A stretch of 64,000 nucleotides of DNA from an uncultured delta proteobacterium. GTDB taxonomy: Bacteria > Desulfobacterota > Binatia > JACPRU01. A program made the position numbers and the translations under genes. The stretch covers positions 128,001 through 192,000 of the forward strand of contig CAVUWD010000008.1 in assembly GCA_963745025.1 (NCBI GenBank). Direction: 5' to 3'. This document shows, in pieces, positions 26,805 to 30,460 of this stretch. Positions within the stretch are counted from its first letter, which is position 1. Each line of letters opens with the position of its first letter. Under the pieces are notes generated by a model that had not been told where the DNA came from, ran no database searches, and was given only the letters and a program-made list of their open reading frames with translations.

Positions 26805-28013
26805 GTGCACCACGAAACCACACTGATCGCCACCATCGCTGTTAGTCTAGCCTTTGCCCTCGCCGGAGGCTTCATCGCTATCCGGCTGCGCCTGCCGTCT
26901 CTCGTCGGCTACTTACTGGCTGGCGTTGCTGTTGGGCCGTTCACTCCAGGGTTTGTCGCCGACGCGAAGCTTGCGCCACAACTGGCTGAGATCGGGGTCG
27001 TACTACTCATGTTTGGTGTCGGGATGCACATCTCGGTGCGCGACCTTTTGGCGGTTCGCGCGATAGCGGTGCCCGGTGCGGTTGTTCAGATCGCGGCAGC
27101 GACGGCGCTTGGTGTCGGTGTCGCTTTGCTGTGGGGCTGGTCGTTGGGCGCCGGTCTTGTCTTTGGGCTGTCCCTCTCGGTGGCCAGCACGGTCGTGCTC
27201 CTCCGTGCGCTCGGGGCATGGGGCATCCTGGACTCGAGCAATGGCCGCGTGGCGGTCGGCTGGCTCGTCGTCGAAGACCTCGTGATGGTTCTTACACTCG
27301 TGTTGCTCCCAGCGTTAGCAGGGTCGCTTGGCGGACAGCCGTCCAGCCACGCCAACGTTGGCACCGCATCACAGAATCTGTTGGCTATAGTAGCTCTGAC
27401 CTTTGGCAAGGTGGCGGCGTTTATCGTCCTGATGCTGCTGGTTGGCACGCGCGTCTTTCCGTGGTTGCTCGAGCGGATCGAGGAGACTGGGTCGCGAGAG
27501 CTGTTCACACTCGCCGTGGTTGCTCTCGCTTTGGGCGTCGCCTTCGGCTCGGCGGAGCTCTTCGGGGTATCGTTTGCTCTCGGAGCTTTCTTTGCCGGCG
27601 TGGTTATCAACGAGTCTGATTTGAGCCACCGCGCGGCAACCGATTTGCGGCCTTTGGAGGACGCCTTCGCCGTCCTCTTCTTCGTGGCGGTCGGTATGCT
27701 CTTCGACCCAAGCATCCTGCTGCGTCAGCCCCTTCAAGTTGTTACGGTCGTCGCAATCATTGTTCTCGGCAAGTCAGTAGCCGCTGGGGCCATCGTGTTG
27801 GCGTTCCGGTACCCTCTCGATGCGGCGCTGACGGTTTCCGCGGCGCTGGCGCAGATCGGCGAGTTCTCTTTTATCCTCGCTGCGCTGGGCGTCAGCCTCG
27901 GGCTCCTGCCAGCGGAGGCGCACAACCTGATCGTGGCGGGTGCGCTCGTCTCGATCACCGTTAATCCGCTTCTCTTTTCCGCAATCGCCAACGTGTACCC
28001 CGGGAAGCGGCCT
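26805..28013 (+). CDS. CPA2 cation:proton antiporter (Kef/YbaL-like) on a gene cassette; native 3' end displaced by IS110
   Basis: LVGYLLAGVAVGPFTPG, LAEIGVVLLMFGVG, LSVASTVV, WLVVEDL, LAQIGEFSFILA; no TrkA-N domain. Confidence 0.9.
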
Positions 28014-28038
28014 CCTAAGAAACAACGACAGTAGGGGT

Positions 28039-29436
28039 TTATAATTGCACGAGTTGGAAGCCGAGAGAGGCGGCGCGCTTGGAGAGAGAGCGGACGGTGC
28101 GCTCGCGGAATTTGAGTTCGTAGTAATCGATGCCGAGATCTTTGTAGGGTTGGCGGTGCTTCCACATTCGGTAGAAGATGCGCGAGAGCTTGTGGGCGGT
28201 GGCGGTGATGGCCTTGGGGGGCCCGAGTCGGGCGCGCATGCGGCGATGAAAGGCACCCAGAGCGGTGTGGCTGTTGCCGGCAGACTGAGCGGCTCGGCGT
28301 AAGGCAGTGGCCACACGGTTGGAGGCTTTTCGGGTCTTGGAGCTTTTCACTTCTCCTCCGGTGACACGGTTGTCGGGGCACAGCGCAAGCCAGGAGGCGA
28401 AGTGCTTCTCGGAGGGAAACTTCGAGGGATCGAGGCCGACCTCGGAAAGGATGGTCTGCACGGTGAGGGCATCGAACCCCGTGATGGCGGTGAAGTCGAC
28501 GCCTGAGATTCGATAGAGGTGGGTGCGCAGGTCGAAGCCAGCCTCGTTGCGCTGGGGCTTGCGGTGGGTGGCCTTGGGTTGTCCCAGGGGCGTGAGAGCA
28601 GGGTCGACTTGGGTGTCGAAGCCGCCCAGGCATTGCTCGATCCGCAGGTCGCAGTCGGCAATCATGCTGCGGTAGGTGTCATAGAGCGAGAGGCATTGCT
28701 CAAGTGCGAAGAGGTGCTCGGGTCGGTAGTCGCCCTGGAGGGATTGGGCGATGCGCTCGGAGGTGCTCTTGATGCGATGATCGCGCATCGCGGCCAGAAG
28801 CTGTGGATCTCGCTCACCGGCGAGGATGGAGCGAATGATTCTCATGCCGCTGACGCCGGTGATGTCACTGATGACCTTGTGAAGCTGGATGTTCATCTGG
28901 GTCAGGGCCTTCTGCATGCGCTGCACGTGAGCGGCCGCGTCGCGGATGAGAGTATCGCGCTGGCGGATGTAGCTGCGCAGCACGCAGGTCTGATCGTCGG
29001 GACGAAACGATCCCGAGAGTAGACCAAAGGTGTGCAGCTGCTGGAGCCACTGGCAGTCCTGGATGTCGCTCTTTCTGCCGGGCAGGTTTTTGACGTGGCG
29101 GGCGTTGACGAGCTTGACCTCGAAGCCGCGCGTCTCGAGGATCTGAAAGAGCGGGATCCAGTAGACTCCGGTGGATTCCATGACCACGGTGTCGACTCCG
29201 CACTGCTCGAGCCAGTCAGCCAGACGGTGCAAATCGGCGGTGAAGCACTCGAAGCGGCGCACGGGCTGCGGATCGCGGTCCTCGGGAACCGCCACGTAGT
29301 GCTCGGCGGATCCGACATCGATGCCGGCGGCGTTGAGGTGCACAGCCTTGAGGCTCGCGGGCAACCCCGTTCCTCGCGCGACGCTCTTTCTCTTTCGGCC
29401 TGCGCCGGGTTTGATAGACTCCTTCATCGAGTACAC
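28039..29436 (-). CDS. IS110-family (DEDD) transposase/recombinase
   Basis: GIDVG, MESTGVYW, KSDIQD, FASWLALCP..TGG, AITATAHKL. Confidence 0.95.
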   Translation of the reverse strand: MYSMKESIKPGAGRKRKSVARGTGLPASLKAVHLNAAGIDVGSAEHYVAVPEDRDPQPVRRFECFTADLHRLADWLEQCGVDTVVMESTGVYWIPLFQILETRGFEVKLVNARHVKNLPGRKSDIQDCQWLQQLHTFGLLSGSFRPDDQTCVLRSYIRQRDTLIRDAAAHVQRMQKALTQMNIQLHKVISDITGVSGMRIIRSILAGERDPQLLAAMRDHRIKSTSERIAQSLQGDYRPEHLFALEQCLSLYDTYRSMIADCDLRIEQCLGGFDTQVDPALTPLGQPKATHRKPQRNEAGFDLRTHLYRISGVDFTAITGFDALTVQTILSEVGLDPSKFPSEKHFASWLALCPDNRVTGGEVKSSKTRKASNRVATALRRAAQSAGNSHTALGAFHRRMRARLGPPKAITATAHKLSRIFYRMWKHRQPYKDLGIDYYELKFRERTVRSLSKRAASLGFQLVQL

Positions 29437-29448
29437 CTCCTTGGAGTT

Positions 29449-29620
29449 GGGATGTGCTCGGGCCGGGTGGGTCGAAGGTGAGAAATCTCCTAAACGGGAT
29501 AACCCTCCGTGCGAGGGAGGGCTTCACCAATGAAACAACCGCAAGCCCCCCGGAACCATGCTAACCCACGGGCGCGAAGGCACCATTGGCGCTACGGTCT
29601 TAGCTACCCGAGCACATCCC
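29449..29620 (-). ncRNA. Putative IS110 bridge RNA
   Basis: Closed by a perfect 14-bp IR (29449-62 / 29607-20); internal short matches to donor and target junctions. Confidence 0.55.
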
Positions 29621-29702
29621 GGTGTACTCGACGCACACCGGCGCAGCAAAGACACTCAGGTTTCTTCCATCAACAACACCGCGCCTCGCGCGGGGTCAAA
29701 TG

Positions 29703-29795
29703 CTAACACGGCGTTGGAACGGCCCCGCGCATGAACGGCGAGTCATCAAGGCGAGCCGCGGTGGGCGCGAGCCGCTCAACCTTCGGTCGTTGATA
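29703..29795 (+). other. attC recombination site (R'' box split by IS110)
   Basis: (GC)CTAAC-acggc-gttggaacggc...gccgctcaac-N8-GTT; L''/L' pair with one extra G and one mismatch. Confidence 0.75.
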
Positions 29796-30010
29796 TGGCT
29801 GACCCGACACACCCCTCTGGAGGTACCGTGGACGAGATCGAACTAGCCCAAGAACTTGCTACAGAGCTGGGTTGGAGTATCCAGGCCACCTATCCTGGGC
29901 TTCGAGCGGTCCACGCCCTCGGACGCGCCATCGACGCCGCACGCACGATCCACCTCCGCCCCGCCGGCCTGGTCGGCCGTCAGGGGCGGTTCACGCCTGC
30001 CTGACCGGGC

Positions 30011-30460
30011 TCAGGACTCGATCAGCTCGATCCGCACCTTCGCCACGCCGCGACGGACCATACCGAGGACGCGGGCCGCGCCGTAGGACAGGTCGATCGC
30101 GCGGCGGTAACGGTACGGCCCCCGGTCGTTGATCGTCACCAGGACCGAGCGGCCGTTGCGCAGGTTCGTCACCCGCACCTTGCTGCCGAGGGGCAGGGTC
30201 GGGTGGGCGCCGGTCAGGTCCTGCGGGTCGAACTCCTCGCCACTGGCGGTACGCCGGCGCGCGAACTCCTGACCGTACCAGGATGCCTGTCCGATCTGGG
30301 CCCCGTCCGTCGGCAGCTCATCCGCACGAGCAGGCGGGGCGAACGCCAGCAGGGTGACGAACGCAACCCAGGCGCAAACGCACCGTAACGCGAGCCGCTG
30401 GCCGGCATCGAAGTAGGGACCGGAGTTTGCTCCGAGGCCCCCGGACGAGGCAGTTTGCAT
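30011..30460 (-). CDS. rlpA: Septal ring lytic transglycosylase RlpA family (DPBB)
   Basis: GQASWYG..RTASGE, AHPTLPLGS, INDRGP, IDLS. Confidence 0.92.
   Translation of the reverse strand: MQTASSGGLGANSGPYFDAGQRLALRCVCAWVAFVTLLAFAPPARADELPTDGAQIGQASWYGQEFARRRTASGEEFDPQDLTGAHPTLPLGSKVRVTNLRNGRSVLVTINDRGPYRYRRAIDLSYGAARVLGMVRRGVAKVRIELIES

Follow-up and report, generated by a model that had tools for sequence, protein, structure and literature searches.

A probable bridge RNA gene, with candidate target and donor guides, in an IS110-family element from an uncultured Binatia bacterium

The insertion sequence and its copies

The DNA that we analyzed (the window) is a stretch of 64,000 nucleotides from an uncultured delta proteobacterium of the lineage Binatia (contig CAVUWD010000008.1 of assembly GCA_963745025.1). 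It contains an IS110-family insertion sequence at 28012–29704, whose gene and putative RNA are both on the minus strand. The transposase (or recombinase) gene (28039–29436, minus strand) encodes 465 amino acids from a GTG start, with an alternative ATG at 29427. In this protein a RuvC-like domain of the DEDD type is combined with a Tnp domain (Pfam matches PF01548, 5.8e-22, and PF02371, 5.4e-11), and it scores 276 bits against NCBIfam's NF033542, "IS110 family RNA-guided transposase" (cut-off 140 bits). Its similarity to the IS621 enzyme of structure 8wt6 is remote (phmmer E = 2e-4). The serine of IS621's "ESG" motif, which we take to be the nucleophile S241 of PMC11208158, aligns with T359 (28360–28362), so this protein has threonine where IS621 has serine. 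Serine and threonine alternate in the motif L-x-P-x4-[ST]-G: counting the last match in each of 81 sequences (80 relatives and our own), 44 have SG, 30 have TG, 5 have TA, and 2 have SA.

The transposase start is preceded by 266 nt of non-coding sequence (29437–29702), and 27 nt follow the stop codon. A long non-coding region upstream of the gene is the layout described for IS110-type elements in PMC11187229 and PMC11208160. The dinucleotide CT (plus strand) is found at both junctions, 28012–28013 and 29703–29704. Counting one copy of this core, the element is 1691 bp long; the element proper is 28012–29702 or 28014–29704, depending on which copy of the core is assigned to it.

Searching the organism's genome with 27950–29800 identified at least five copies of the 1.69-kb element. 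Their common sequence is 28012–29707, and their flanks differ. In five of the hits, one or both ends of the element can be read. The search also turned up a fragment that is cut off by a contig edge, and a copy of the flanking repeat that is free of the element. One of the copies outside the window (L005/L007, C8:103159–104494) is missing 364 nt within the transposase gene. Also, a contig from a public run (X1) matches the element up to 29708 and then continues into another flank, which is a further insertion site with a CTAAC box.

The element has a sub-terminal inverted repeat as well. The right-end copy, AAGAAAC (28017–28023, plus strand), lies 5 nt inside the right-end core, and its partner GTTTCTT at the left end (29660–29666, plus strand) lies 36 nt inside the left-end core. 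In homologs, the repeat keeps its position and its two copies covary (AAGGAAC/GTTCCTT, GACTAAC/GTTAGTC, or GAGTAACT/AGTTACTC). Across the branch the repeat is 7–11 bp long (at least 7 nt in 12 of 15 types), with the left copy 30–40 nt inside the end and the right copy adjoining the right-end guide region.

To the left of the element is AAGCGGC (28005–28011, plus strand), which would be the other half of the interrupted target. These bases also end a reading frame for a Na+/H+ exchanger (26805–28034; PF00999, 1.2e-50), which continues into the element. Before the insertion, this frame ended inside the palindromic repeat described below, so its last codons have been replaced.

A conserved fold upstream of the transposase gene

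We scanned one genome per species for relatives of the element and found 136, of which we kept the best 80 loci. Hosts of these best 80 include Binatia (78% identity), Wolbachia, Dehalococcoidia, Acidobacteriota, Verrucomicrobiota, Planctomycetota, Chloroflexota, and others, and all 80 have a long non-coding region upstream of the gene. Several multi-copy genomes gave us element ends that are independent of any RNA model.

A scaffold with two similar modules is common to 50 of 81 loci; the other 31 lack the motif CAUGGU. The first module reads ...GACCG-(variable)-CAAUGGUG-hairpin-CCCG-(8 variable nt)-CAUGGUY..., and the second reads ...CAUUGGUGA-hairpin-YCCCG-(8 variable nt)-AUUG.... From 30 distinct sequences we picked 22 non-redundant ones for an alignment, on which RNAalifold predicts five helices: P1 closes the structure, P2 and P3 frame internal loop 1, and P4 and P5 frame internal loop 2. 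The predicted partners can pair in 91.1% of 744 cells of the alignment, as against 36–46% if the partners are slid by 1–3 columns. There are compensatory changes in 23 of the 34 pairs, and none of 500 shuffles reached the observed covariation score. Near-invariant G-U pairs (alignment columns 81–132, 92–121, and 161–202) fit only the minus strand as RNA. The earlier note on this DNA had described the region as bridge-RNA-like, and the fold and the covariation across 22 homologs bear this out for the non-coding region at 29437–29702 (minus strand), which we consider a putative bridge (or seeker) RNA gene.

The closing stem P1 is formed by 29606–29620 (5' strand) and 29449–29462 (3' strand), both on the minus strand, and all 11 of its consensus pairs show compensatory changes. 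It coincides with the perfect 14-bp inverted repeat that had been noticed from the sequence (29449–29462 and 29607–29620; 144 nt between the arms and a span of 172 nt), with the right arm as the 5' strand and the left arm as the 3' strand.

Folding the element's own RNA as a single sequence draws the two main guide segments (described below) partly into pairs that are not conserved; their unpaired probabilities are 0.40 and 0.61, against 0.31 overall. Averaged over the 22 sequences, the values are 0.47 and 0.59, against 0.35 overall. An extra helix in loop 2 is visible by eye in several sequences (such as ACGGU/ACCGU in Wolbachia and GGCGAU/AUCGCC in L037). Because the alignment is loose there, this helix could not be demonstrated column by column.

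Rfam contains no family that matches 27500–30300 at E values up to 10, and none reaches the gathering score on L008 or L002. We found no sigma-70-like promoter in 27950–29800, which was scanned as the linear element. The only RNA run from the same study, a poly-A run, has 0 reads on this stretch and so is no test of expression; Logan contigs show the presence of the DNA only. Directly after the left-end start, the minus strand has a G+C-rich hairpin and then a U-rich run (29679–29693), and homologs have the same in this place. The hairpin resembles a terminator. It could keep outside transcription from entering the element, or the RNA could begin with it as a 5' stem-loop.

Guide segments and the sequences that they follow

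The earlier note had drawn attention to two short matches: CTCCTAA, which is indeed present at 28012–28018 and at 29487–29493, and ATGCTAAC, which is at 29558–29565 and at 29700–29707. Within the window, neither is compelling by its count. CTCCTAA occurs 3 times where 2.06 are expected (32 of 100 shuffles reach 3), and ATGCTAAC occurs twice where 0.42 are expected (3 of 100 shuffles reach 2). The significance of these matches comes from comparing homologs and not from the window alone. Among the findings that the note had named as speaking against its proposal are that the segments lie in stems and that they do not covary with their targets. We found that the segments lie in the consensus internal loops, not in the stems, and that they covary with ends and targets in the homologs.

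We begin with loop 2. Its 3' side (UUUAGGAG; 29487–29494, minus strand) ends in 7 nucleotides that equal the right-end terminus, including the core AG. For 21 of the aligned types, the contig includes the right end, and in 20 of these the 8-mer's final 7 nt equal the right-end terminus. By guide type (7 distinct guide sequences occur among the types), the 7-mer is found exactly at the element's own right end in 9 of 9 cases, but in only ~3% of 66 pairings with foreign guides. Because this segment tracks the right end across homologs, we identify it as the donor guide, as had been suggested for 29487–29493; it has the same sense as the right-end terminus.

A second donor guide would be expected on the 5' side of loop 2 (29530–29548, minus strand). 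We found no complementarity of this side to the left-end start. In homologs, we compared 6 nt of it to the left-end start at offsets of −1 to +2, and even for the best comparison 332 of 5,000 permutations scored as high. We also scanned for a left-end donor guide by 5-mer diagonals and by mutual information (all columns against 18 left-end positions) and found nothing consistent. Three loci with an unclear left junction (L030, L032, and L046) were left out of the diagonal and mutual-information scans.

The 3' side of loop 1 (29559–29568, minus strand) reads UGGGUUAGCA, that is, UGGGUUAG followed by CA. The 8-mer is the candidate target guide, and CA(U) is invariant scaffold, which equals the first bases of the element. 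In homologs, the 8-mer recurs in the same sense 119–153 nt upstream, directly before the conserved start of the element (CA...). Of 16 guide types, 11 match their own junction with at most one mismatch in the 8 positions, while foreign guides do so in 12 of 240 pairings, with every foreign guide being given the same search window. The left junction in our permutation test was located with the guide itself, so this search-aware comparison to foreign guides is the fair test. In a column-by-column scan of mutual information, the guide columns come out on top, with identities of 0.94–1.0.

In Wolbachia, the matched flank bases vary between copies (CCGTATAG, GAGTTTAG, CCATTTAG, TCGTTTAG), which implies that they are not part of the element; the flanks follow the guide UCGUUUAG, with 8 of 8 positions matching in two copies. 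In Dehalococcoidia, the matched bases likewise vary between copies of one element. The five copies in our genome read CGTGTTAG, TAGGTTAG, CGGGTTAG, CAGGTTAG, and CTTGTTAG, where the guide is UGGGUUAG. Since the loop-1 segment tracks the sequence just outside the left end, these comparisons identify it as the target guide. The earlier placement of this guide at 29558–29565 was partly right: that segment overlaps the guide (29568–29561 in the RNA sense), but its last three letters (CAU) belong to the invariant scaffold.

The 5' side of loop 1 (UAGCGCCAA; 29586–29594, minus strand) may be the guide for the right target flank, where its partner would be the RNA-sense strand. We compared 6 nt of this side to the right flank across 14 guide types and 37 sites. 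On average, 2.83 of the 6 positions are complementary, compared to 1.60 in permuted data, and none of 5,000 permutations scored as high. There is a second signal at an offset of +1. This test is not circular because its right ends were located with the loop-2 guide. The clearest case is Wolbachia, where AAUCUU faces a flank consensus of AAGATT. In our own five copies, the right target flanks fit the 5' side at just 6 of 30 positions, which is the chance level. The covariation with the right target flank is weak and is seen at the level of the family only. The poor fit in our own copies speaks against a role for the 5' side in this element; alternatively, these insertions may be of the "half-match" kind that is reported for IS621 in bioRxiv 10.64898/2026.08.31.748434.

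All of the loop-1 and loop-2 guides in the alignment, and in the loci of a later parse, end in AG. (The later parse succeeded for 51 of 85 loci; 9 of these 51 have no parse of loop 2 and are absent from the right-end and right-flank tests.) The core is thus AG in the sense of the RNA and the transposase, and CT on the plus strand of the window. The earlier note had placed a CT core within both guides, and the core dinucleotide is in both, but it reads CT on the plus strand only. The Chloroflexota relatives (L072–L086) have a variant scaffold, CGUGGUU, and their loop-1 guide, CGGUGCAC, ends in AC and matches their left junctions. This implies that the core dinucleotide differs within the branch.

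That both guides end in AG also argues that the CTAAC at 29703–29707 (plus strand) is the core CT plus three bases of the target, and that it derives from the target and not from the element. It is invariant in all five of our copies, and the bases beyond it vary. The element is therefore 5 bp shorter than the comparison of copies implies; we set its boundary after the core because the guide model places it there.

Rival readings and a proposed mechanism

We consider it highly likely that the minus strand of 29437–29702 encodes the bridge (seeker) RNA of this IS110-family element. The comparison of homologs establishes the structure, the position of the guides in its loops, and the covariation of the guides with ends and targets. 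Expression of the RNA, its binding to the recombinase, and its role in directing recombination are what we infer by analogy to IS621, ISEc21, and the IS1111-family elements.

One rival reading, which we judge to be very unlikely, is that the segments act at the level of DNA, as internal copies of the ends (such as binding sites for the recombinase), without any RNA. The sub-terminal inverted repeat shows that the element does carry features of this type. However, the helices around the segments keep G-U and compensatory pairing on the minus strand only, and the loop-1 segment follows target bases that lie outside the element.

Another reading, to which we give equally little credence, is that GTTAG (CTAAC on the plus strand) is the true left terminus, so that the loop-1 segment would be a second donor guide and the target would be chosen in some other way. 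GTTAG is invariant in all five of our own copies, and the match to the RNA extends into the element (GUUAG-CAU versus GTTAG-CAT); both facts are as this reading would have them. Against it, the copy of the flanking repeat without the element (L008) already has CTAAC at the homologous place. It is also hard to reconcile with the variation in matched bases between copies of one element in Wolbachia and Dehalococcoidia, or with both guide 8-mers ending in the same dinucleotide, as a shared core demands.

Least plausible of all is that the region is just a structured 5' leader that regulates translation of the transposase, with chance matches to the ends: the matches are short and near chance level in the window, and the 3' strand of P1 stops ~8 nt before an AAGGAGG ribosome-binding site, but the guide segments change with ends and targets in 16 and 9 guide types, which counts against this reading because a leader function needs no covariation between guides and DNA. 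A regulatory role besides guiding is possible.

Under the bridge RNA reading, we propose the following mechanism. The closing stem P1 encloses two stem-loops, each broken by an internal loop. The 3' side of loop 1 (UGGGUUAG), being the same as the left target flank plus the core, would pair with the opposite strand of the target DNA. For the 5' side of loop 1, the probable partner is the right target flank, on its RNA-sense strand. The donor would be the junction of the excised circle, and its opposite strand would be bound by the 3' side of loop 2 (UUAGGAG), which is the same as the right-end terminus plus the core. The RNA-loaded recombinase would then join the donor junction to the target ...GTT-AG (CT-AAC... 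on the plus strand), and strand exchange at the shared AG/CT core would produce the junctions at 28012 and 29704. The predicted circle junction has ...CTTAGGAG joined directly to CATTTGACC..., with a single AG core (...TTAGGAG + CATTTG...).

Comparison with known systems and the choice of target

The element shares many features with IS621, as that system is described in PMC11208160 and PMC11208158. In both, the RNA lies in a long non-coding end upstream of a DEDD recombinase, and of its two internal loops, the first serves the target and the second the donor. Also, the long guides each include a core that is shared by target and donor, and the guides covary with the DNA. In each loop of the IS621 bridge RNA, one strand of the left half and the core is bound by the longer of two segments, and the other strand of the core and the right half by the shorter one (PMC11208160). 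Viewed from the plus strand, where the core is CT, our element has the same arrangement as IS621, with a 5' side in the sense of the left target and a 3' side antisense to the core and the right target. The scaffold's CAU could pair with the donor bases that precede the core. IS621 has its handshake guide in this position (PMC11208158), so CAU may be in the handshake-guide position. CAU never varies, and so covariation offers no test of a handshake role.

There are also differences from IS621. The protein has 465 amino acids, as against 328 for the 8wt6 chain, besides having threonine instead of serine at the nucleophile position. In the RNA sense, the long bottom-strand guides are on the 3' sides of the loops instead of the 5' sides, and the core is AG instead of CT. 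In our element, a single closing stem encloses both stem-loops, and the second donor guide was not found.

The seekRNAs of PMC11187229 provide two more points of reference. Our element resembles ISEc21 in having its non-coding region upstream and in the short matches of the RNA to the two strands of the target. However, ISEc21 has the complement of the top strand 3' of the complement of the bottom strand, and this order is reversed in our element. The order that we see, with the top-strand complement 5' of the bottom-strand complement, is that of the IS1111-family seekRNAs. The sub-terminal inverted repeat of 7–11 bp may be another IS1111-like feature. IS1111 elements have sub-terminal repeats of 7–17 bp near both ends; our element has a 7-bp repeat that covaries in homologs, but its left copy is 36 nt inside the end. 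In contrast to the IS1111 elements of the same paper, the non-coding region is upstream instead of downstream, and the transposase has 465 amino acids instead of the 330–350 reported for that family. The placement of the left repeat copy 30–40 nt inside the end is also unlike IS1111.

Most of the IS110 and IS1111 elements in ISfinder have a predicted bridge RNA, and the shapes of these RNAs vary (PMC11208160). Thus, our RNA is very probably another example of the known bridge/seeker RNA system of the IS110 family, from a little-studied branch. Our literature search found nothing on a bridge RNA of IS110 elements in Wolbachia, although the ISfinder elements that were surveyed in PMC11208160 and PMC11187229 may include this branch.

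We also considered a bolder idea, that the branch represents a third architecture of IS110-family guide RNA. Taking its features jointly, we consider this doubtful. Such an architecture may combine an upstream RNA gene, which is IS110-like, with the guide order and the long sub-terminal repeat of IS1111, and it may nest both loops in one three-way junction. Just three guides may act by base pairing, the fourth (for the donor's left-end half) having given way to recognition by the protein or through the inverted repeat, and natural insertions may need the half-site GTTAG only.

RNA-guided recombination by IS110 elements has been known since 2024 and is under development for genome editing. Our analysis adds a well-supported natural example from a distant branch with long proteins: an alignment of 22 RNAs, complete with putative guides, the core, and the target sites found in nature. 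In this branch, features by which the literature distinguishes IS110 from IS1111 occur together, and a match to only one half of the target appears to suffice for insertion. Both points bear on the origin of specificity and of off-target insertion.

The attachment sites of integron cassettes (attC) are imperfect palindromes that begin with an RYYYAAC box and finish with a GTTRRRY box. To the right of the element's left end is an imperfect palindromic repeat of ~90–100 nt (29703–29800, plus strand), of the type CTAAC...GTTAG, which we judged by eye to be attC-like. The element is inserted in its first box. The paralog of this palindrome that lacks the element (L008) forms a long imperfect hairpin closed by CTAAC/GTTAG (z = −3.67). 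The repeat has 3–4 copies in the genome.

Elements of the IS1111 type that target attC sites were reportedly described by Post and Hall in 2009 and by Tetu and Holmes in 2008. They include ISKpn4, ISPst6, and ISPa25 (PMC11187229). Like these elements, two of our five copies are in the end box of an attC-like palindrome: the copy in the window and L002, which is in another member of the same repeat. Unlike them, the other three copies are outside attC-like repeats, and they have only CTAAC(C) in common.

The earlier note had gone further, in that its guides were meant to explain specificity for attC. This part did not hold up: all five copies have CTAAC, but only two of the five are in an attC-like repeat, and we found no integron integrase at the cut-off. 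(The best match to TIGR02249 scores 73.9 bits, where the cut-off is 265, in an assembly that is 92.65% complete.) Given the lack of an integrase at the cut-off and the repeat's 3–4 copies, we set the attC reading aside. The guide would instead select ...CTAAC(C)..., which is found in such boxes; a preference for attC is not supported by three of the five copies.

Some insertion sites contain additional guide-like units. The flank of L002 in our own genome has GTTAG three times in the RNA sense, and two copies in Binatia (L010 and L011) sit among GTTGTT units; these tandem units are similar to the target guide of the element itself. These extra tandem units could be preferred targets or the traces of earlier events.
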